Source of the DNA: Isorropodon fossajaponicum endosymbiont JTNG4
GTDB taxonomy: Bacteria > Pseudomonadota > Gammaproteobacteria > PS1 > Pseudothioglobaceae
Length of the DNA: 32,000 nucleotides
NCBI RefSeq assembly: GCF_016592615.1
Contig: NZ_AP013043.1
Span: 1-32,000, forward strand
Reading direction: 5' to 3'
In this document: one piece after another, positions 17,310 through 31,649 of the stretch
Position numbering within the stretch: the first letter of the stretch is position 1
Layout of the letters: each line of letters starts with the position of its first letter
Translations under genes and position numbers: made by a program
The notes under the pieces: generated by a model
The model's database searches: none
Told to the model about the DNA's origin: nothing
What the model saw: the letters and a program-made list of their open reading frames with translations, nothing else

Positions 17310-17371
17310 ATTTACCTGTGTTTTAGGTATAATTGGCTCTTTTTTCAAGTATAAAAACGGATTTGAACGCA

Positions 17372-20533: not shown

Positions 20534-21862
20534 ATGAAGGCATTATTTGAACAACAAAAAGACGCCGTTGGCAAAGGCGAAAGAACGCTTTTGGTGTATG
20601 TTGAGTTGCCAAGTAATAGACAATCGCACAATGCCCAAGCTGAATTTAAAGAACTGGCTGGGTCATCAGGTCTGGATATCGTTAAAACCATTAAAGTGAA
20701 TCGTAATTCAGCCTTAGCTCGGTTTTTTATTGGCACAGGCAAGGTTGAAGAAATTGCAATAATGGTAGAGGATTTAGCATTGGACTTGGTGATTTTTTCT
20801 CCTGAATTGTCACCCTCGCAAGAACGTAATTTAGAAAAATCTCTAAAGTGCCAAGTGATGGATAGAACGGGATTAATCTTAGATATCTTTGCTTTGCGTG
20901 CTAGTTCTTTTGAAGGTAAGTTGCAAGTAGAGCTGGCGCAACTTAGGCACTTATCAACACGCTTAGTTCGTGGCTGGACGCATCTTGAGCGCCAAAAAGG
21001 CGGCATTGGGCTACGTGGTCCTGGTGAGACTCAGTTAGAAACCGATAAGCGACTGATTGCTGTGCGCATTAAAAATATTACCAAGCGATTGGACAAAGTA
21101 CACAAACAGCGTGATTTGGGCAGAAAATCACGCACTAAAAATGAATTGCCTATGATTGCTTTAGCAGGTTATACCAATGCAGGCAAATCAACTTTGTTTA
21201 ATACCTTAACCAATGCACAAGTGTTTGCCAATGATCAACTTTTTGCAACCCTTGATTTAACCATTAGACGCGTGATACTGCCTGCGTCTGGAGAAGCAGT
21301 GATTGCTGATACCGTGGGTTTTATTCAAGACTTACCTCATGACCTTGTTGATGCGTTTAAATCCACATTAGAGGAAACTAAGCGTGCTAATGTTTTATTA
21401 CATATTGTTGATGCAGCTGATGAGTACAATATTGAGAAAATTGCTCAAGTTGAAGATATTATTTTTGAGATTGGTGCAAGCACCATCCCAAGTATATTAG
21501 TGATGAATAAAATTGATTGTTTGGATAATTTTGCACCACGCATGGATCATGATGAACATGGGCATATTTATCGAGTTTGGCTTTCAGCACAAACAGGAAA
21601 AGGCGTTGATTTTCTTCATCAAGCCCTAGCCGAACGGCTTAGTGGTATGATGACTCGTGCAAAGATTCACTTGGATGTTAATAGTGCTTATATTCGTAGT
21701 AATATTCATGATATTGGACATATCCATCATGAAAAAGTGGATGATTTTGGGGCTTGGGTACTTGAAATATTTGTTACTAAGCACTATCTATCTAGATTAC
21801 TAAACTTCAAAGGCGTTACATTGCTATGGGAACAGAGCTCACCAACGAACAAATTGATTTAA
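20534..21862 (+). CDS. hflX: GTPase HflX
   Basis: HflX N-domain ('GKVEEI', 'QERNLE', 'DRTGLILDIFA.RA'). G-domain 'GYTNAGKSTLFN', 'DTVGF', 'NKID'. ATG 20534 lies 1 nt after the clpX stop. The ORF opens at 20483. Confidence 0.9.
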   Translation: MKALFEQQKDAVGKGERTLLVYVELPSNRQSHNAQAEFKELAGSSGLDIVKTIKVNRNSALARFFIGTGKVEEIAIMVEDLALDLVIFSPELSPSQERNLEKSLKCQVMDRTGLILDIFALRASSFEGKLQVELAQLRHLSTRLVRGWTHLERQKGGIGLRGPGETQLETDKRLIAVRIKNITKRLDKVHKQRDLGRKSRTKNELPMIALAGYTNAGKSTLFNTLTNAQVFANDQLFATLDLTIRRVILPASGEAVIADTVGFIQDLPHDLVDAFKSTLEETKRANVLLHIVDAADEYNIEKIAQVEDIIFEIGASTIPSILVMNKIDCLDNFAPRMDHDEHGHIYRVWLSAQTGKGVDFLHQALAERLSGMMTRAKIHLDVNSAYIRSNIHDIGHIHHEKVDDFGAWVLEIFVTKHYLSRLLNFKGVTLLWEQSSPTNKLI

Positions 21863-24162
21863 GCAAAGGTAATATTCCACTATTGCCCTTAAGAGATGTG
21901 GTGGTTTTCCCCCATACCGTTATGCCATTATTTGTTGGCAGAAAAACCTCTGTTAATGCAATTACTCAAGCAATGGGTACCAATAAATACATTTTTTTAG
22001 TGACTCAAAAAGATGATAAAGTAGAAGAACCTTTGAATGATGATTTGTATCAAGTGGGCACGTTAGCGACTATTCTACAAATGTTAAAATTACCCGATGG
22101 CACCATCAAGGTTTTGGTTGAAGGAGTCAGACGTGCTAAGATTGAACAAATTGTACAAGTTGATGGTTTTTCTGAGGTGAGTTTAAGTGAATTTAGCTTA
22201 AAGTCAAATGATGATACTGAAATAAAAGCAATGATGCGCTTGGCGTTAGGTGGTTTCGAGAATTATATTAAGTTAAATAAAAGAGTGCCAGAAGAGGTAC
22301 TCAAAGTGTTACAAGAAGTGAGCGATGTTGAGCGTTTTAGTGATGTTATTATTGCCAATCTAAACCTTAAGGTGTCTGAGAAACAAGCCTTGTTAGGTGA
22401 TGATAATGCCCAAGATAGGCTTAATAAAATCTTATCGGTCATTCAAGGCGAGATTGATGTATTAGGCACTGAGAAGAAAATTCAATCACGCGTTCGTAAG
22501 CAAATGGAATCCAATCAACGTGATTATTATTTGAATGAACAAATGAAGTCCATTCAAAAAGAGTTGGGTCAGGCTGAAGATGAAAATGAAATTGAGGAGT
22601 TGCAAGCCAGTATCAACAAGGCTAAGATGTCAAAAGAGGCTAAGAAAAAAGCACAAAGCGAGTTAAAAAAACTTTCTCGCATGTCATCACACTCATCTGA
22701 TGCCTCTATTATTCGCACTTATATTGAAAACTTGTGCGATACGCCATGGAAAAAGAAAACCGTTATTAACAAGGATCTTAATAAGGCGCAAAAAATTCTT
22801 GATGATGATCACTATGGCTTGGATAAAGTTAAAGAGCGTATCTTGGAGCATTTAGCAGTGCAAACACGTGTGACTCATAACAGGGCTAATATTTTGTGCT
22901 TGGTGGGCCCTCCGGGTGTGGGTAAAACCTCTTTAGGCGAATCCATTGCTAAAGCAGTTAATCGTAAATACGTTCGCATGGCACTTGGTGGTGTTCGAGA
23001 TGAGGCAGAAATTCGTGGCCATAGGCGTACTTATATTGGCGCTATGCCAGGCTCAATCATACAAAAAATGCAAAAAGCAAAGGTTAAAAACCCACTTTTT
23101 TTGTTAGATGAGATTGAAAAAATGGCAAGTGATTATCGTGGCGATCCTTCTTCGGCGATGTTAGAGGTATTAGACCCAGAACAAAACCACACTTTTAATG
23201 ATCATTATTTAGAGGTCGACTATGACTTATCACAAGTCATGTTTGTAGCAACTGCTAACTCACTTGATTTGCCACAGCCACTTTTAGACAGAATGGAAAT
23301 TATTGAATTGGCTGGCTATACCGAAGATGAAAAAGTTGAAATTGCCAAGCGTCATTTAATTAAAAAAGCAATGAATGGCAATGGCATTAAGGACAGTGAA
23401 ATTAAGTTTCAAGATGGCGCTATTTTAGACATGATTCGCTATTACACACGTGAAGCGGGTGTGCGTGGTTTGAGTAGGACGATTAGCACCATTTGTCGAA
23501 AGGTTGTTAAAGAAGTGGTTTTAAAAAAACGTAAAACTAAAGCCAATATTGACGTTACAAGTTTGGAAAAATATTTAGGTGTGAGGAAGTTTCGTTTTGG
23601 ACTGGCTGAACAAAATAATCAAGTGGGCGAAGTAACAGGGCTTGCTTGGACTTCGGTGGGAGGGGATTTATTAACCATTGAGGCGACAGCTTATAAAGGC
23701 AAAGGCAAACTCAACTATACAGGCCAATTAGGCGATGTTATGCAAGAATCAATCCAAGCAGCAAAATCTGTAGTTAGAAGTAGAGCCAAGAAATTTGGCA
23801 TTGATGAGAATTTTGATGAAAAACTAGATATTCACATTCACGTACCTGATGGCGCAACGCCAAAAGATGGGCCTAGTGCAGGTGCAGCGATGACAACAGC
23901 ATTGGTATCAGTACTCACAGGTAGAAAGGTCAAAGCCGATGTTGCTATGACAGGGGAGATCACACTTCGAGGTGAAGTCACCCCAATTGGGGGACTAAAG
24001 GAGAAAATGTTAGCCGCATTGCGTGGTGGTATTAAAACAGTGATTATCCCTGATGATAACGAGCGTGAATTGTCTGAAGTGCCTGAGAAAATCAAAGGCA
24101 AGCTTAAGATTATTCAAGTGAAGTGGATTGATGAAGTGTTGGATATTGCTTTGGAAAAATAA
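21826..24162 (+). CDS. lon: ATP-dependent protease Lon
   Basis: N-terminus 'LPLLPLRDVVVFPH', Walker A 'GPPGVGKTS', catalytic 'PKDGPSAG' and 'GGLKEKMLAA'. It overlaps the hflX 3' end by 37 nt. Confidence 0.96.
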   Translation: MGTELTNEQIDLSKGNIPLLPLRDVVVFPHTVMPLFVGRKTSVNAITQAMGTNKYIFLVTQKDDKVEEPLNDDLYQVGTLATILQMLKLPDGTIKVLVEGVRRAKIEQIVQVDGFSEVSLSEFSLKSNDDTEIKAMMRLALGGFENYIKLNKRVPEEVLKVLQEVSDVERFSDVIIANLNLKVSEKQALLGDDNAQDRLNKILSVIQGEIDVLGTEKKIQSRVRKQMESNQRDYYLNEQMKSIQKELGQAEDENEIEELQASINKAKMSKEAKKKAQSELKKLSRMSSHSSDASIIRTYIENLCDTPWKKKTVINKDLNKAQKILDDDHYGLDKVKERILEHLAVQTRVTHNRANILCLVGPPGVGKTSLGESIAKAVNRKYVRMALGGVRDEAEIRGHRRTYIGAMPGSIIQKMQKAKVKNPLFLLDEIEKMASDYRGDPSSAMLEVLDPEQNHTFNDHYLEVDYDLSQVMFVATANSLDLPQPLLDRMEIIELAGYTEDEKVEIAKRHLIKKAMNGNGIKDSEIKFQDGAILDMIRYYTREAGVRGLSRTISTICRKVVKEVVLKKRKTKANIDVTSLEKYLGVRKFRFGLAEQNNQVGEVTGLAWTSVGGDLLTIEATAYKGKGKLNYTGQLGDVMQESIQAAKSVVRSRAKKFGIDENFDEKLDIHIHVPDGATPKDGPSAGAAMTTALVSVLTGRKVKADVAMTGEITLRGEVTPIGGLKEKMLAALRGGIKTVIIPDDNERELSEVPEKIKGKLKIIQVKWIDEVLDIALEK

Positions 24163-24845: not shown

Positions 24846-24924
24846 TTAGATTAAGTGGTATATTCATTGGCATATATTTGAATATATACTAGTATCTCTG
24901 TAAAAATATATACCACTTAACTAA
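24846..24924. repeat. Inverted repeat (13-bp perfect core, about 17 bp imperfect) separated by 44 nt
   Basis: TTAAGTGGTATAT (24851-24863) and ATATACCACTTAA (24908-24920). The arms extend to TTAGA.. and ..ACTAA. The repeat sits immediately upstream of the IS256-family fragment. Confidence 0.7.
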
Positions 24925-25181: not shown

Positions 25182-25533
25182 ATGACACAATATAAATCAA
25201 GAAAACAACGAGTGACTTTTACCGTTGAACATTCTGTTCAATACCCCCTTGAGGGGGGAACACTAGATTATGCCAAACTCATGGTGCATGAGAATTACAC
25301 CAATAAAAAAAATCATGATAATATCAGGAGCTTGCTCCTCAGCAGTTAGCAGATGGAGAAAACAATACCTAGCAGAGCTTGGTGGACAAACACCAGAGTC
25401 AGGCAAAGCGCTGACTTCTGAACAACAAACAATACAACTGCTTGAGAAACAACTTTGGCGCGCACAAAGGGACAATGAAATCTTAAAAAAGGCAACAGCC
25501 TTGTTCGCTGTGGACAATCACCAAGTGATATGA
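25182..25533 (+). pseudogene. IS3-family orfA, frameshifted at an A8 run
   Basis: AAGGAGG RBS at 25169-25175. Frame 0 reads 'MTQYKSRKQR..DYAKLMVHENYT' up to the A8 run (25305-25312). The HTH and leucine zipper ('SSAVSRWRKQY...LLEKQLWRAQRDNEILKKA') then continue in the +1 frame. Confidence 0.8.
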
Positions 25534-26387
25534 TTATCAAGATAAACAAGGCTTGCCAACAATACAATACTAAAGAATTATGAGCATTACTCAAACTTCC
25601 TCGCAGTAGTTATTACTATCAAGTCAAAGATAAGCGAGTAAACAACAACACCAACGCTATGATTAAATTAATCAAACAAACTGCTATTGAAGTTGGATAC
25701 ACCTATGGCAAACGCAGAATGCGAGTAGTTTTGAATAACCAAGGTTATAACATTGGTATTTACCAAACTGCAACGCTAATGAAAAAAGCCAATGTAGTTG
25801 CCATACGCCCAAGAAAGCGTCATTATTACCCTAATACTAGATTGATGTTTAAAAAGGCAAAAAACCTATTAAATCGTGTGTTTGAGCAGCAATCAATTAA
25901 TACGCATTGGGTTGGTGATATTACCTATATCAAAACCTATCAAGGTGGGAGTTATTTAGCCAGTGTGTTGGATTTAGGCTCAAGACAAGTTGTTGGTTGG
26001 GCATTGTCAAAACAGCCTAATGCTCAGTTGGCAAAGGATGCGCTTAGTAATGCTGTGTCTAGACACCAGCCCAATACAAATAAACACATGTTCCACTCTG
26101 ATCAAGGGACTCAATACTCTTCTAAAGTTTTTATTGATTATTGCAACAAGAACAACATTACTCAAAGCATGAGCAGGCGAGGTAATTGTTGGGATAATGC
26201 GGTCATGGAGCGTTTCTTTAGAAGTCTGAAGACTGAGAGATTAAATTATCAAAGTTTTGCAAATCATAGTGAAGTCGTGCAAAATGTAGAGGGTTATATC
26301 TACTTGTATAATTACAAAAGGATTCATTCAGCGATTGGGTATTTAACACCTGCTCAAAAGATGGCTGAATTGAAAAAAGCGGCTTGA
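25491..26387 (+). pseudogene. IS3-family orfB (DDE transposase) with an in-frame TGA
   Basis: The -1 frame after the slippery site reads '..INKACQQYNTKEL*ALLKLPRSSYYY'. The TGA is at 25581-25583, where relatives have Cys. The DDE core is intact downstream ('WVGDITYI', 'LDLGSRQVVGW', 'HSDQGTQY', 'ERFFRSLK'). Confidence 0.8.
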
Positions 26388-26470: not shown

Positions 26471-26561
26471 TGTTGACCTTTGGCTGGATATTGTCTTTTT
26501 CTGCCTCGCTTGGACATTTAAGCATTGTTTATATTATATTGATGAATCATCGCAAACTAAT

Positions 26562-27668
26562 ATGAAAAGAAAAAAAATATTTTAGCCATATCCAAGAGAA
26601 TATTAATGACCCACATTATTTTGAAATTTATAAAAAAGTCAGAACAGGGAAGCAGGCTAGTCTTAATCATAATAAAAGGTGTGTAAAGAAAATAATCAAA
26701 CAAGAAAAGTCTGCCCATTTTCCTAGTTGCGTTATTAATTTCAAGGAGAAAGTAGACCTTTATAGTTCAGAACATAGTGATACGACAATTAAATATGCCA
26801 ATAAAATTTCTGATGCAAAAACTAAAAGAGTTTTCTTAAATTTTAAAAAAATAGATTTTATGTCGGCTGCTGGCTGCGACTGCCGTACTACTCTTTGCAA
26901 TATATCGAACAAAATCAGCAAATAAGCATATTACTTGCAACTATCCCACAAGCCCTAAAACTTGCGCCATTATGAAGCAAGTCGGAATTTTTGATGCGAT
27001 AGGTAGAATGCCACCAAAAAACTGCAATATAGATGACTTTCCAGATGTTAAACATTGGTATAAATTTGTGGGTGATGCATTGATTGACCCACAAGAAATT
27101 TCTCAAGAAGCGCACAATATAATTGATTTTTGTTGTAATAAAGAAGTGAAAAACATAGATGATTATAGGGATAATTTAGAGTTGAATATTGGGGAAACTA
27201 TATTAAACATTTTTGATCATGCATATGAAAAAAGCATAGGAAAACATTGGGTTTTATTTGCACAGTATACTGTTGATAAAAAATCATTGTGTCTTATTGT
27301 GAGCGACCATGGTATCGGTATTCCAAAAACGTTTTAAAATTATCATGAGCAAGACAGTAAGTGGGATATATTTTGGAATAATCTTACGCCATCACGCCGT
27401 GCTAATGGCTATATAAAAGAATCAATTGAAAGTCTTTTTAAGGTTGACAAAAGGTCAAAGTTATAAAGGTAATTTAACACAAAATAGAGCAGGAAGAGGG
27501 ACAGGGTTGAAGAAAATAAAAGATGAAATAGATAAATATAATTCAGGCTTTTTAAATGTTTATAGCCATGATGGTTTTTATAGTAGTGTAGGTAATAAAT
27601 CAACGTTTAAAACCAAGATTTTTGGCACTATAATTGAAATTGTCATTCCTATCAAGGCATTCGAATAA
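26562..27668 (+). pseudogene. STAS-like / GHKL (histidine-kinase-like) ATPase fusion, pseudogene with at least 4 lesions
   Basis: STAS-like 'RVFLNFKKIDFMSAAG'. GHKL N-box 'GETILNIFDHAYEKS', G1 'VSDHGIGIPKT', G2 'NRAGRGTGLKKI' and 'GTIIEIVIPI'. The lesions are: a frameshift in the A-run at 26571-26577 just after the ATG, a frameshift at about 26870-26900, an in-frame TAA at 27335-27337, and a frameshift at about 27450-27470. Confidence 0.65.
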
Positions 27669-27700
27669 TGTACAATATGTTTTACTTATGCTCCATGTGA

Positions 27701-28036
27701 ATAATAGCAAGCGATAAAACACACACAATTGTAATTGCTGAAGACTTTAGCAAATATACTGGTTATCGTTATAAAAGTCAAAGTGCAGGCTCGTCAGGCG
27801 AAGAATTTAGAGAGGAATTTCTCTTGCCTAGTATCAAAGAGTATACATTTATAAAAGTTGACCTTAATGGTGTTAAGAATAGAATTTTACCCTCGTTTCT
27901 TGAAGAGGCATTTGCAGGACTTGCTCGAAGTAAAAAATGGGATTTAGAAACATTCAAAAAACACATTGAGATTATTTCAGATCGAACCGACTACATTGAA
28001 GATATATATATTTATATAAAAAATACACAAAAATAA
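27701..28036 (+). CDS. DUF4325-type STAS-like protein (no canonical start codon at the homologous N-terminus)
   Basis: The open frame from 27701 reads '..KTHTIVIAEDFSKYTGYRYKSQSAGSSGEEFREEFLLPSIKEYTFIKVDLNGVKNRILPSFLEEAFAGLAR..'. This matches my recollection of DUF4325 proteins (I.I.EDFS..PG.RY...G..SGE.FR....L.......V.LDF.GV.....SFL.EAF..L). The ORF track starts only at TTG 27824. No ATG or GTG is in frame between 27701 and 27823. Confidence 0.6.
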   Translation: MIASDKTHTIVIAEDFSKYTGYRYKSQSAGSSGEEFREEFLLPSIKEYTFIKVDLNGVKNRILPSFLEEAFAGLARSKKWDLETFKKHIEIISDRTDYIEDIYIYIKNTQK

Positions 28037-28431
28037 TGCCTTGGTTTTTGGAAAATATTCTTATTCCAATAGTTATATCGCTAGTATTTATGTGGAGTAG
28101 TGAAGATATATGAATCAGGTAAATCGTTGCAATAGTTTTCAAAAATATATTAAAAAAATTAAAAATTTATTAATATTAACCAACCACTCCGGGTAATTTT
28201 AATGAAGATAAAGAGGCTGAAATTGCACTAGCTATAGATAATTTATTATCCAATTTGAGTTTAAAAAATAAAAAACAGAATAATGAGGTAAAAGAAAAAC
28301 TTAGTGGCATTAGGAGGAACTTGTCCACTTTAAGCAAAAACATAAAAGAGCAATTATATCAAGAGACATCCGCATTAATGATTGAAAATTTAGGCAGTCT
28401 TCTTAAAGAAGTAAAGCGCAAACATTTCTAG
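28036..28431 (+). pseudogene. Small membrane-anchored coiled-coil protein, split over three frames
   Basis: ATG 28036 overlaps the upstream stop (TAATG). It encodes 'MPWFLENILIPIVISLVFMWSSEDI*', a single hydrophobic helix. The sequence continues in shifted frames as 'MNQVNRCNSFQKYIKKIKNLLILTNHSG*' and 'GNFNEDKEAEIALAIDNLLSNLSLKNKK..LMIENLGSLLKEVKRKHF*'. I do not recognise the family. Confidence 0.3.
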
Positions 28432-28482: not shown

Positions 28483-28832
28483 CTAGCTTTTGTCAGCTTG
28501 ATGACTTTTCTCTAAACTATTTTCTCTCCGATTTTCCATCTCCAGCATATGTTGGCTTTGTTTAAAACTCCTAACCTGTTTTTGATTAATAACCCCATTG
28601 TTAAGAGCTTGTTTCAATTCATTATCATGAATTGACTGATGCGCCTGTTTAAGGCTATTTCTGCTAATGGCATATGCTTTTTTTGCTTGGCTTCTTTACG
28701 TTCACCTAGAAAATCGGTATTTTTGTTAAGATTTTCTCTATCTTGCACATAACAACTGTTTACATACTTAAAAGAAGTAAATTTTTCTTTTGTAGTATTA
28801 TCTTTTGGATTAAAAACAGTCTCTGTAGCCAT
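28483..28832 (-). CDS. Hypothetical protein, possibly frameshifted at a homopolymer
   Basis: The 72-aa ORF at 28614-28832 starts 'MATETVFNPKDNTTKEKF..'. At the T7 run (28678-28684, which is A7 on the coding strand) an alternative frame continues as '..KAYAISRNSLKQAHQSIHDNELKQALNNGVINQKQVRSFKQSQHMLEMENRRENSLEKSHQADKS*' down to 28483. I do not recognise any family. Confidence 0.35.
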
Positions 28833-28875: not shown

Positions 28876-29073
28876 ATGTCCCATAAAAAATTTGACGATG
28901 ATTTTATCAATATTGCCAATAATATGGGTGTTCCTTTGTACGGCAGATTTGACACCAAAGGAGCTGGTTTGTTTTTACGCACCAGTGAAAAAGAGCTAGA
29001 AAGTTTAATTACCAGCAATCAAATCAATTACATCAAATCCAAAAATTATGGGTTTTTGGCTATCAGTTGGTAG
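28876..29073 (+). CDS. Hypothetical protein with a possible excisionase/MerR-type helix-turn-helix
   Basis: 'DTKGAGLFLRTSEKELESLITSNQINYIKSK' resembles HTH_17/Xis-type motifs (A..L.vS..tL..li..g.i.y.k). The frame appears to shift near 29050 into '..GYQLVEYLLSQ..'. Confidence 0.3.
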   Translation: MSHKKFDDDFINIANNMGVPLYGRFDTKGAGLFLRTSEKELESLITSNQINYIKSKNYGFLAISW

Positions 29074-29129
29074 AGTATTTACTCAGTCAAACAACACAAA
29101 ATAACATCACACCTAACACCAATGATAAA

Positions 29130-29297
29130 GTGGACAGAATTATCAGAATACAAGAGTTGCAAGAAATGATAGGATTATCACGCACTACCATTTGGAGAAT
29201 GGAGGGCTACGGCTCTTTTCAAAAAGAGTAAGCCTTTGGTAAAAATAGCATAGGTTGGAAACTCAGCGAAATCAATCAGTGGCTAAAAAATAAATAA
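29130..29297 (+). pseudogene. AlpA-family (prophage CP4-57-type) transcriptional regulator, frameshifted
   Basis: From GTG 29130: 'DRIIRIQELQEMIGLSRTTIWRMEGYGSFQKE*'. It continues in another frame as 'GKNSIGWKLSEINQWLKNK*'. Together these match the AlpA signature (LR..EV...tGLSRSTIyR....G.FP.PV.LG.RSVGW...EI..Wl). Confidence 0.55.
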
Positions 29298-29356
29298 ACT
29301 CACTACAAAAAATAACTGGTATACAAAGTGGTATATTTTTTGAAAACTGGAAATAA

Positions 29357-29404: not shown

Positions 29405-29481
29405 TGGTGGTTATAGGTGGACTTGAACCACCGACCCCAGCATTATGAATGCTGTGCTCTAACCAGCTGAGCTACATAACC
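29405..29481 (-). tRNA. tRNA with CAT anticodon (elongator tRNA-Met, though a lysidine-modified tRNA-Ile2 is not excluded)
   Basis: The minus strand reads GGTTATG-TA-GCTC-AGCTGGTTA-GAGC-A-CAGCA-TTCATAA-TGCTG-GGGTC-GGTGG-TTCAAGT-CCACC-TATAACC-ACCA. It is 77 nt, folds into a full cloverleaf and has an encoded CCA. The D-arm and variable loop closely resemble E. coli elongator tRNA-Met. Confidence 0.88.
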
Positions 29482-30472: not shown

Positions 30473-31303
30473 TTATAAACCAATAGCGCGCTGATAGCAG
30501 TATTTTTTATCAATACCAGTTATTTTGGCTGCAAGCTTAGCGGCTTTTGCTGCACCCATCTCAGCGAGTAAAATGGGTAATATTTTATCCAACACCTCCT
30601 CTCCTGATATTTTATTATCTTTATCTACCGCAGAAATAAGAATCACAAACTCACCTTTTTGGTGTGCGTCATCTGTTTGTAAATAATCAATCAAATTTGA
30701 CAAAGTGTCTGTTTTAATCGTCTCAAACGACTTAGTCAACTCTTTGGCAAAACAAACAATGCGCTCATTACCTAGTACCGTTTGTAAATCTTGCGCACAG
30801 GAAAGAATGCGTTTAGGCGATTCATAAAAAATAACCACTTCATTGATGTGAGCAATTGAACGAATTGCTTTCAGACGTGCTGATTGCTTACTGGGTAAAA
30901 AACCAAAAAAACTGAATTTATCGCTAGCAATCCCTGATGCACTAATTGCGCTAATCATGGCGTTAGAGCCAGGAATGGGTGACACACTAATACCTGCTTT
31001 TTTTGCCTCGCTCACTAATACATAGCCTGGGTCGCTAATAAGTGGTGTGCCTGCATCGCTAATCAACGCAATATGCTTGCCTGCTAATAATTCACTGATT
31101 ACATCGGGCGTTTTATGCCTTTCATTATGTTCATGAAAGGCATACATGGGTGTTGTAATGTCATAATGATTAAGCAAGTGTTTGGAATGGCGTGTGTCCT
31201 CTGCTAGAATAATATCAACTATTTTTAGCATTTCAATCGCCCTAAAAGTGATATCATCTAGGTTTCCAATTGGTGTGGCAACAATATAAAGCGTTCCGTT
31301 CAT
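30473..31303 (-). CDS. rsmI: 16S rRNA (cytidine1402-2'-O)-methyltransferase
   Basis: 'LYIVATPIGNLDDITFRA...LAEDTRHS', 'SDAGTPLISDPG', and a C-terminal HTH-like tail. The start is set at the Met of 'MNGTLYIV'. The ORF opens at 31330. Confidence 0.92.
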   Translation of the reverse strand: MNGTLYIVATPIGNLDDITFRAIEMLKIVDIILAEDTRHSKHLLNHYDITTPMYAFHEHNERHKTPDVISELLAGKHIALISDAGTPLISDPGYVLVSEAKKAGISVSPIPGSNAMISAISASGIASDKFSFFGFLPSKQSARLKAIRSIAHINEVVIFYESPKRILSCAQDLQTVLGNERIVCFAKELTKSFETIKTDTLSNLIDYLQTDDAHQKGEFVILISAVDKDNKISGEEVLDKILPILLAEMGAAKAAKLAAKITGIDKKYCYQRAIGL

Positions 31304-31649
31304 GTTTAGTTTTAAAAGAAAAATTGGCAATCAGGCAGAAGACATTGCATTGGCATATTTGTCCAAACAGCGTCTTAAACTCATTGAAAAAAATTATTTA
31401 ACCCTATTGGGTGAAATAGATATTATTATGCTTGATAAAATTAGCCAAACATTAGTTTTTATTGAAGTTCGCTATCGTGCTAATATTCGTTTTGGCACTG
31501 CGATAGAAACGGTTACTCACAAAAAGCAAGCAAATATAATTCGCACTGCTGAATTATATTTACAAAGACATCAAAAATATCAAGATTATCTGTGCAGGTT
31601 TGATGTTATCGGGCTTGAATCTGATTTAAAATATCCTAAAATCAATTAG
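31302..31649 (+). CDS. yraN: YraN-family (UPF0102) putative endonuclease
   Basis: 'G...E..A..YL', 'GEIDIIM', 'LVFIEVRYR' and 'RFDVIG'. 115 aa. Confidence 0.85.
   Translation: MFSFKRKIGNQAEDIALAYLSKQRLKLIEKNYLTLLGEIDIIMLDKISQTLVFIEVRYRANIRFGTAIETVTHKKQANIIRTAELYLQRHQKYQDYLCRFDVIGLESDLKYPKIN

Follow-up and report, generated by a model that had tools for sequence, protein, structure and literature searches.

A decayed kinase, STAS and membrane-protein operon in a clam endosymbiont and its probable kinship with the VapKSC anti-phage system

What kind of system is represented by three adjacent, broken genes that lie on one strand beside a tRNA gene in the genome of a clam endosymbiont? The question is raised by a locus at 26542-28431 (plus strand) of the window, by which we mean the whole stretch of 32,000 nucleotides analysed here (positions 1 to 32,000 of contig NZ_AP013043.1, assembly GCF_016592615.1, Isorropodon fossajaponicum endosymbiont JTNG4). 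The original prediction, made from this DNA alone, read the locus as a decayed accessory module of three genes, encoding a STAS-like segment fused to a GHKL ATPase, a DUF4325 STAS-like partner and a small membrane-anchored protein. Comparison with intact copies shows that the three genes form a conserved operon, which we name K-S-TM after its kinase-like, STAS-like and transmembrane (TM) products. Our preferred reading, to which we assign a probability of roughly 0.55, is that K-S-TM would be a kinase-STAS switch resembling the VapKSC system, with a membrane protein as its output and with a role in defence or superinfection exclusion suggested by its genomic context.

The window copy and its intact relatives

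The trio in the window consists of three co-oriented pseudogenes with seven disabling lesions in total. These were mapped on a DNA alignment with L006, a metagenome contig of 2.2 kb that is the closest intact relative (mean column identity 92%); the features below derive from that alignment, supplemented for the promoter-like site by a consensus scan.

26511-26540, plus strand: putative promoter-like site upstream of gene 1 (TGGACA, 18 nt, TATATT)
26542-27668, plus strand: gene 1 (K) pseudogene, VapK/CapK-like, intact length 374 aa
26563-26565, plus strand: gene 1, lesion 1, CGA>TGA nonsense change at codon 8
26869-26872, plus strand: gene 1, lesion 2, tandem duplication of GCTG (+4 nt), a frameshift in the STAS helix motif FMSAAA
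27335-27337, plus strand: gene 1, lesion 3, CAA>TAA nonsense change
27442, plus strand: gene 1, lesion 4, insertion of one nucleotide (G), a frameshift
27707-28036, plus strand: gene 2 (S) pseudogene, DUF4325 STAS-like, intact length 110 aa; frame intact, ATG lost through a 3-nt deletion after 27706
28036-28431, plus strand: gene 3 (TM) pseudogene, intact length 130 aa
After 28101, plus strand: gene 3, deletion of one nucleotide
28178-28181, plus strand: gene 3, duplication of AACC (+4 nt)

Homology to L006 starts just 5' of the promoter-like site, whose first hexamer is a perfect TTGACA in L006 and TGGACA in the window, and gene 1 carries in addition a harmless in-frame 3-nt deletion after 27226. 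This map bears out much of what had been claimed for the locus: the three genes are broken and share a strand, the stop of gene 2 and the start of gene 3 overlap in TAATG at 28034-28038, genes 1 and 2, placed 32 nt apart, are separated by ~32-38 nt, the TAA at 27335 is real, and gene 2 does lack its start codon. The 5' end of gene 1 had been misread. Its true ATG is at 26542, 20 nt farther upstream than the start placed at 26562, and the supposed homopolymer frameshift after the ATG is instead the in-frame nonsense change at codon 8; the ATG at 26562 belongs to another frame and overlaps the resulting TGA. The count of at least four lesions in gene 1 thus stands, with the TAA at 27335 among them, although the first had been misdiagnosed. 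Gene 3 is read in three segments, but these occupy two frames and not the three stated, as a result of the single-nucleotide deletion and the AACC insertion. Ratios of non-synonymous to synonymous substitution rates (dN/dS) between the window and L006 are 0.22, 0.28 and 0.28 for genes 1, 2 and 3, and thus most of the divergence arose under purifying selection, before inactivation; this suggests that inactivation was comparatively recent. Judged by its alignment to L006, the window trio is a dead copy of a once-functional operon, and the earlier description of it as a fossil was correct.

The trio is present intact, and in the same order, far beyond the endosymbiont. In every sufficiently long contig of the close homologues we find genes for proteins of 373-377, 110-117 and 130-132 aa, with the stop and start of genes 2 and 3 overlapping or abutting. 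All 51 untruncated loci among 54 from IMG/VR have a DUF4325-type gene directly after the kinase gene, followed by an open reading frame (ORF) of 139-210 aa with an N-terminal hydrophobic helix. In a scan of one genome per species, a set from which the JTNG4 genome is absent, ~23 of 26 bacterial loci carry the full trio, in Gamma-, Beta- and Alphaproteobacteria, Helicobacter and Wolinella; the other three comprise one locus with genes 1 and 2 and an ambiguous third ORF, and two weak matches in Bacteroidota. Searching from the third gene leads to the same arrangement, since it returned 51 small unannotated proteins and all three with long contigs lie in trios. Named examples include Marinobacter phage AS1 (AS1_41/40/39), a Helicobacter prophage and, in a published table, the Francisella prophage KIRK, in which a run of 293 aa, 112 aa (DUF4325) and 125 aa (TM) products follows the CI repressor. 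The trio is also found in 30 of 5,426 complete Escherichia coli genomes; the one such locus examined lies in a Rac-like prophage, where the Prokaryotic Genome Annotation Pipeline (PGAP) names the products 'ATP-binding protein / STAS-like domain-containing protein / hypothetical protein'. An intact Escherichia coli copy is that of strain EcPNK006 (NZ_CP071436.1, 2417608-2419565; J1137_RS11620-11610), with the products WP_250269058 (ATP-binding), WP_000691548 (STAS-like) and WP_000013905 (hypothetical). No conserved fourth gene was found, as homology between loci ends within ~100 nt after the stop of gene 3. K-S-TM is therefore a conserved three-gene operon, and the possibility that the genes never occur together elsewhere is contradicted by the viral and bacterial loci alike. 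Deposited annotation can obscure the arrangement: in the sponge-associated Candidatus Thioglobus sp. (GCA_900180405.1, FXLE01000018.1, 9294-10056) the gene calls omit gene 2 and truncate gene 3, while the DNA does not differ from that of the intact trio on contig L002, which makes this an annotation gap and not decay.

The kinase-like, STAS-like and membrane-anchored proteins

The product of gene 1, taken to be a cytoplasmic GHKL ATPase of the Ser/Thr kinase type, starts with basic helices (aa 1-58), continues with a STAS-like domain (aa ~62-176) and ends in a GHKL kinase domain of the SpoIIAB/RsbW type (aa ~182-374). A search with the repaired gene 1 yielded seven intact homologues of 373-377 aa, with 60-89% identity, from SUP05/Thioglobus-type metagenomes, and HMMER, run exhaustively over 1.84 billion cluster representatives, retrieved 515 relatives at E <= 1e-3; this is a real family of no great size. 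Against Pfam HATPase_c the repaired gene 1 stays below the gathering cut-offs (20-21 bits), and with the single-sequence match sub-threshold we base the assignment of GHKL and STAS on family profiles and a structure model. A profile of 142 homologues finds SpoIIAB and RsbW as the best matches in the PDB, at E 1.3e-4, with weak STAS matches for the N-terminal domain (E 0.1-0.7). An AlphaFold model built on the same 142-sequence alignment has a predicted local distance difference test score (pLDDT) of 84.3 and a predicted template modelling score (pTM) of 0.83, the pLDDT falling to 44.8 when only the seven close homologues are used; it displays three N-terminal helices (aa 8-58), a STAS-like α/β domain and a GHKL domain, and with Foldseek it matches SpoIIAB (E 1.8e-4) as well as SpoIIAA, TM1442 and RsfB. 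The three N-terminal helices have no Pfam helix-turn-helix (HTH) match. The boxes of the Bergerat-fold ATPases correspond to the conserved residues of the family, for which invariance is given over the 142 homologues:

27191-27226, plus strand: GHKL N box GETILNIFDHAY; E217 and N221 invariant, H225, A226 and Y227 nearly so
27305-27325, plus strand: GHKL G1 box DHGIGIP; D255 and G257 invariant
27492-27509, plus strand: GHKL G2 box GRGTGL; G321 invariant, R318 and G319 nearly so

Further near-invariant residues are W236, I260, P261, S341, G344, G361 and T362, and in the profile alignment the N box is brought into register with EAVTNAIIHGY of SpoIIAB and EACTNAVQHAY of RsbW. The three boxes lie where they had been placed by the original prediction, and its assignment of gene 1 as a STAS-like segment with a full GHKL set agrees with profile, model and residue conservation; the failure to match either fold, which would have spoken against it, was not seen. 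Functional names are of little help here, as gene 1 belongs to a PHROG entry without a function (phrog_3364), NCBIfam and PADLOC gave no functional name, and the Joint Genome Institute (JGI) annotates its homologues as 'anti-sigma regulatory factor / anti-anti-sigma factor'.

Gene 2 of the window matches Pfam DUF4325 with 30.9 bits against a gathering cut-off of 23, as had been proposed for it. Together with its homologues it spans 31-47 bits, and the homologues are 104-130 aa long and consist of the STAS/DUF4325 domain alone; Pfam finds no HTH in any of them. Eight residues are invariant in 47 homologues (R22, G32, F35, S64, F65, L66, E68 and F70), and the serine among them is the predicted phospho-acceptor:

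27893-27895, plus strand: Ser64 codon of gene 2; motif (S/P)-S-F-L-E-E-A-F, serine invariant in all 47 homologues

A conserved segment S-x-E-D-P-x-L lies at the C-terminus of the family. Gene 2 belongs to phrog_5816, again an entry without a function, and its homologues match only positions ~330-440 of this 441-position profile, an indication that some phages carry the DUF4325 protein as part of a larger fusion, possibly with the kinase. A PDB sequence search with the gene 2 profile retrieved a generic STAS protein as its best match (E 0.18) and no chain of VapS or CapS, the two characterised STAS proteins considered below.

The third gene encodes a protein of 130-210 aa with one N-terminal TM helix in all ~80 loci in which it can be read. 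In the family alignment the helix (aa ~1-22 in the window copy) is followed by a conserved helical domain, the tail first described as coiled-coil-like, and the shared traits are a hydrophobic helix ending in G-W, a basic stretch, a helix with the pattern I..L..E..A..FW, an L-R-x-x-x-T motif and a C-terminal helix. Hydropathy confirms the N-terminal hydrophobic helix noted at the outset, with the peak within the first 50 residues in 63 of 64 distinct sequences and a second candidate helix in only one. Over the 64 sequences the 15 residues that follow the helix carry a net charge of +2.8, compared with -0.6 before it, which by the positive-inside rule predicts an N-out, C-in anchor with a cytoplasmic C-terminal domain. 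Neither a PIN domain nor any other Pfam domain was found in the third gene across the ~80 loci; the search for bacterial loci used a 6-sequence alignment and patterns tailored to the window subfamily, and PIN-type intermediates may exist beyond it. Searches of Pfam, PHROGs, NCBIfam, PADLOC and the PDB gave no match, the PDB search with the gene 3 profile returning helical and TM matches at chance level only. As far as these sequence and profile comparisons go, gene 3 is a protein family without prior description.

Kinship with known systems, neighbourhoods and a possible mechanism

Two characterised systems are related to the first two genes (Chambers et al., EMBO J 2026, PMC13373217). CapK is an HTH-STAS-GHKL kinase and CapS a repressor consisting of a STAS domain and a winged helix-turn-helix (wHTH); single-stranded DNA (ssDNA) activates CapK, which leads to phosphorylation of CapS at Ser54 and de-repression of adjacent immune operons (PMC13373217). 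The VapKSC operon encodes VapK (STAS-GHKL), VapS (a STAS domain followed by a brief C-terminal stretch, with Ser48 conserved) and the PIN toxin VapC, to which VapS is the antitoxin; the phosphomimetic S48E frees the toxin, and the operon protects by ~2 logs against one phage (PMC13373217). Activation by ssDNA requires an aromatic residue, W68 in CapK and F54 in VapK (PMC13373217). An older survey had noted one group of VapC toxins 'transcriptionally coupled to DUF4325 genes', and the 2026 paper does not mention a membrane-protein variant. The statement that no function had been assigned to such a trio thus holds for the version with a membrane protein, whereas the pair of kinase and DUF4325 protein has characterised relatives in CapK/CapS and VapK/VapS/VapC.

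Using the VapK, VapS, CapK and CapS sequences from the supplementary files of PMC13373217, we find that the gene 1 profile aligns by hhalign with Escherichia coli VapK at a probability of 98.1% (E 1.1e-13) over 256 columns spanning both domains, and that the two share the motifs E..xN..(E/D)H, D.G.GIP, RG.GL, YS..G and GT.i. With CapK the probability is 96.3% (E 1.7e-9), and the STAS and GHKL core is aligned while the CapK HTH is not; the proteins are of similar size (368 aa in CapK, 374 in K), and their active-site Asn residues occupy similar positions (N218 and N221). On the side of gene 2, VapS scores 62.7 bits against DUF4325, and the S-S64-F-L-E-E of S resembles D-S-S54-F-P-R-E of CapS. 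Ser64 also falls within one residue of VapS S48 in an hhalign alignment that is itself non-significant. VapKSC and K-S-TM have in common the order of kinase, STAS protein and third protein, a homologous STAS-GHKL first protein, a DUF4325 second protein of ~110-116 aa that has a short segment at its C-terminus and, where helix 2 begins, a conserved serine, and a location near restriction-modification and other defence genes. They differ in that the third protein of K-S-TM is a single-pass membrane protein and not a VapC PIN nuclease, and in that K has ~60 extra basic N-terminal residues compared with VapK and does not conserve the F54 equivalent across its family. The CapKS pair and the trio both often lie directly downstream of restriction-modification systems; unlike CapS, however, S has no wHTH and hence cannot be a repressor of the CapS type, and no further immune operon follows the trio, whose constant partner is the membrane protein. 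K-S-TM thus departs from VapKSC in the defining toxin, from CapKS in the lack of the wHTH and from the anti-sigma modules in the lack of a sigma factor. By sequence and profile comparison it forms, within the family of CapK/VapK-STAS modules, a paralogous branch whose third component differs.

The neighbourhoods of the intact copies are those of prophages and restriction-modification systems. Within two genes upstream of the trio, 41 distinct viral loci include Peptidase_S24 in 16, HTH_3 in 12 and Phage_CI_repr in three, and these repressor-type neighbours are typically 200-240 aa long and encoded on the strand of the trio; in phage AS1 the gene directly before the trio encodes a repressor-like HTH protein and diverges from cro. 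In lambda, rexAB is positioned after cI. The likeness to RexAB is one of position and logic only, namely a co-oriented location directly downstream of the prophage repressor and the pairing of a cytoplasmic sensor with a membrane component; there is no relation in sequence or fold, and RexB has four TM helices. In ~9 viral loci P2-like portal and terminase genes lie downstream of the trio, and accessory-gene hotspots of P2-like phages have been reported near the portal/terminase region. Among bacterial copies, Gallionella capsiferriformans ES-2 carries hsdR-hsdM-hsdS-K-S-TM, co-oriented and with overlapping gene ends, another trio follows a type IIG/ISP enzyme, and copies of the SUP05 type adjoin Dcm+EcoRII, Eco47II, HEPN_Toprim_N and toxin-antitoxin genes. 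This survey of neighbourhoods is qualitative, and the association of the trio with defence is suggestive. A divergent trio (243 + 130 + 163 aa) in a metagenome assembly of unrelated origin lies directly upstream of rsmI, with yraN nearby (L094 6878-9568, L095 1287-3977); the window, too, has rsmI (30473-31330) and yraN (31302-31649) just past the island. The position beside rsmI/yraN may mean that insertion recurs at this site, or it may be a coincidence.

In the mechanism that we propose by analogy with VapKSC, S would bind and restrain the cytoplasmic domain of TM in the resting cell. A signal of infection or DNA damage, possibly ssDNA from damaged or restricted DNA, would activate K, and the activated kinase would phosphorylate the invariant Ser64 of S; phosphorylated S would then release TM, and freed TM would harm membrane integrity or otherwise arrest the cell, so that phage replication is aborted or a superinfecting phage excluded. 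Within this scheme, phosphorylation of S by K at Ser64 is probable. A toxic effector role for TM, with S restraining it, has a little less than an even chance of being right, and the trigger is the weakest part. The comparisons establish the domain identities, the homology of K to VapK and CapK, the DUF4325 membership of S, its invariant serine, the constant gene order and the prophage and restriction-modification settings; the rest of the scheme is inferred. The original suggestion of a partner-switching-like, island-borne module of the defence type is supported to this extent, as it fits both the neighbourhoods and the precedent of VapKSC.

Several results weigh against this reading. The 24 bacterial loci have few defence genes within three genes of the trio (type I and IIG restriction-modification, reverse transcriptase (RT), AbiLi, mad2/mad5), and PADLOC-DB v2.0.0 gave no credible match to the repaired window proteins, to nine intact trio proteins from three viral loci or to a tenth kinase. 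Our literature search found no description of the trio, and gene 3 is without a recognisable toxin or pore domain. Direct profile-to-sequence comparison of gene 2 is non-significant with both VapS (E 0.06) and CapS (E 0.095); the link between them rests on the common Pfam family and the serine motif. The residue at the position of CapK W68 and VapK F54 is F106 in the window's subfamily, where it is invariant in seven sequences, but across the 142 homologues the column is occupied by K (32), R (24), F (15), S (14) and L (11); as the aromatic contact to ssDNA is variable, being mostly K, R, F, S or L, the trigger may differ from that of CapK and VapK. Finally, the prophage position beside cI also fits a role in the control of lysogeny.

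This last point leads to an alternative in which the trio is a regulatory switch of the prophage or island, with K sensing DNA damage and phosphorylating S, and with S-TM controlling induction, lysis timing or superinfection immunity, in the manner of CapKS and with no killing. Such a role would suit the frequent position of the trio right after CI-type repressors and beside Cro, antitermination Q and lysis genes, and CapK and CapS are themselves regulators and not effectors; in phage AS1, moreover, the repressor-like AS1_42 has, on a reading of its sequence and with no Pfam run, no recognisable S24 autocleavage domain, and an alternative damage sensor would be useful there. Gene 2, however, lacks the DNA-binding wHTH of CapS, TM does not have the multi-TM architecture of a holin, and complete trios are also found outside prophages, behind restriction-modification operons and beside housekeeping genes, where there is no phage decision to control. 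We regard a purely regulatory role as unlikely. Information could also flow in the opposite direction, TM sensing envelope perturbation or DNA injection and holding or releasing S, with K as the output that phosphorylates host or phage proteins and so arrests infection, as kinase-based abortive systems do. In SpoIIAA/AB and RsbV/W the STAS protein governs the availability of the kinase, and a K regulated by partner switching would be compatible with its extra basic N-terminal helices and its own STAS domain, as would a sensory TM with the constant presence of this protein and its lack of a toxin-like domain. In the sole characterised relatives, though, the kinase is the sensor and the partner of the STAS protein the output, and the invariant serine argues that S is a dedicated substrate; this reversed arrangement also seems improbable to us.

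The resemblance to classical partner switches raises the further possibility of an anti-sigma / anti-anti-sigma pair whose sigma factor is encoded elsewhere. SpoIIAB, RsbW and SpoIIAA are the best matches among solved structures, the JGI names of the homologues point the same way, and the trio shares with SpoIIAB/SpoIIAA and RsbW/RsbV the kinase fold, an N box of the form E-x-x-x-N-x-x-x-H-A/G-Y and a STAS substrate with a serine in helix 2. In contrast to those pairs, its kinase is fused to a STAS domain, the module is mobile, in phages and islands of Gamma-, Beta- and Alphaproteobacteria and Campylobacterota, and a membrane protein is its constant third partner. Neither the window, as the first reading had it, nor ~85 related loci yielded a sigma factor or PP2C phosphatase; sporadic Sigma70_r4_2 matches in the loci are unrelated and coincide with matches to Terminase_5, the phage terminase small subunit. 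An anti-sigma pair is accordingly very improbable. That the adjacency of the three genes is accidental debris, left by deletions in a decaying symbiont genome, might be entertained for the window, where the region is rich in lesions and adjoins an insertion sequence (IS) element, but it is refuted by synteny, the same order with overlapping stop and start being intact in dozens of unrelated genomes and phages; we give it practically no weight. Returning to the VapKSC-like switch, its furthest-reaching form is that the gene 3 family would be a new membrane-acting abortive-infection effector, held by a phosphorylatable STAS 'antitoxin' and fired by a VapK-like kinase, and that K-S-TM would constitute a distinct prophage-borne immune or superinfection-exclusion system, functionally analogous to RexAB and assembled from a partner-switching module. 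We offer this version tentatively, as a possibility that falls somewhat short of an even chance.

The surrounding island and the meaning of the trio

The window copy lies in what had been called a mobile-element-rich island next to a tRNA gene, a fair description, since an IS3-type transposase, an AlpA-like fragment and tRNA-Met are all present:

25182-26387: IS3-family insertion sequence; orfB of 242 aa with rve/DDE domains, looks intact but short
28483-28617 and 28614-28832, minus strand: pair of adjacent ORFs in different frames, resembling a broken gene, no family match
29067-29231: AlpA-like fragment of 54 aa, sub-threshold match to Phage_AlpA, overlapping a 65-aa ORF
29405-29481, minus strand: tRNA-Met

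The orfA region of the IS3 element is fragmented, with a weak HTH_Tnp_1 match at 25270-25533, and the right end of the element is within ~120 nt of the promoter-like site of the trio. No integrase was found in the debris between the trio and tRNA-Met. On the other side, the Lon protein of the window (21826-24162) is 94-99% identical to that of other symbionts of vesicomyid clams (Ruthia/Vesicomyosocius group), and synteny with two sister symbionts extends through lon and a DsrE-like gene and ends at ~24794; no remnants of the trio were found at the lon-linked locus of the sister symbionts. A 17-nt imperfect direct repeat, AAGTGGTATATTCATTG / AAGTGGTATATTTTTTG, occurs at 24853-24869 and 29326-29342, and also at 24903-24918 in inverted orientation. 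The direct copies bracket an insert of ~4.5 kb with the IS element, the trio and the AlpA-like fragment, the left copy lying just inside the end of synteny and the right copy separated by ~63 nt from the tRNA-Met 3' end. Such repeats may be att-like boundaries of the island, or a 17-mer in two copies could be chance. A tblastn match of gene 2 at the 5' end of tig (64 residues, 37% identity, E 4e-5 in a 36-kb database; L097 5471-5629, L096 5471-5626, equivalent to a position near 17333 in the window) was set aside as a probable chance effect of composition.

In a vertically inherited clam symbiont under genome reduction the decay of genes is expected, and for this organism the trio is one more gene set lost to reductive evolution, the window copy serving only as a pointer to its intact relatives. 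K-S-TM itself is a moderately widespread, uncharacterised variant of a type of system first described in 2026. It ranges over temperate phages of Gamma-, Beta- and Alphaproteobacteria and Campylobacterota, Rac-like prophages of Escherichia coli included, and is found also behind restriction-modification operons, a placement that fits the idea of kinases that link first-line cleavage of DNA to a second-line suicide response. The intact copies in Escherichia coli prophages and in a cultured Marinobacter phage make the hypothesis tractable. Taken together, these observations make an uncharacterised relative of the VapKSC anti-phage system, acting at the membrane, the likeliest identity of K-S-TM. 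If this is true, the kinase-STAS pair known from CapKS and VapKSC would gain a third class of output, a small membrane protein without described relatives; and if TM should prove to be a novel effector, the pair would be a general plug-in trigger for effectors as unrelated as a repressor, a PIN nuclease and a membrane protein.

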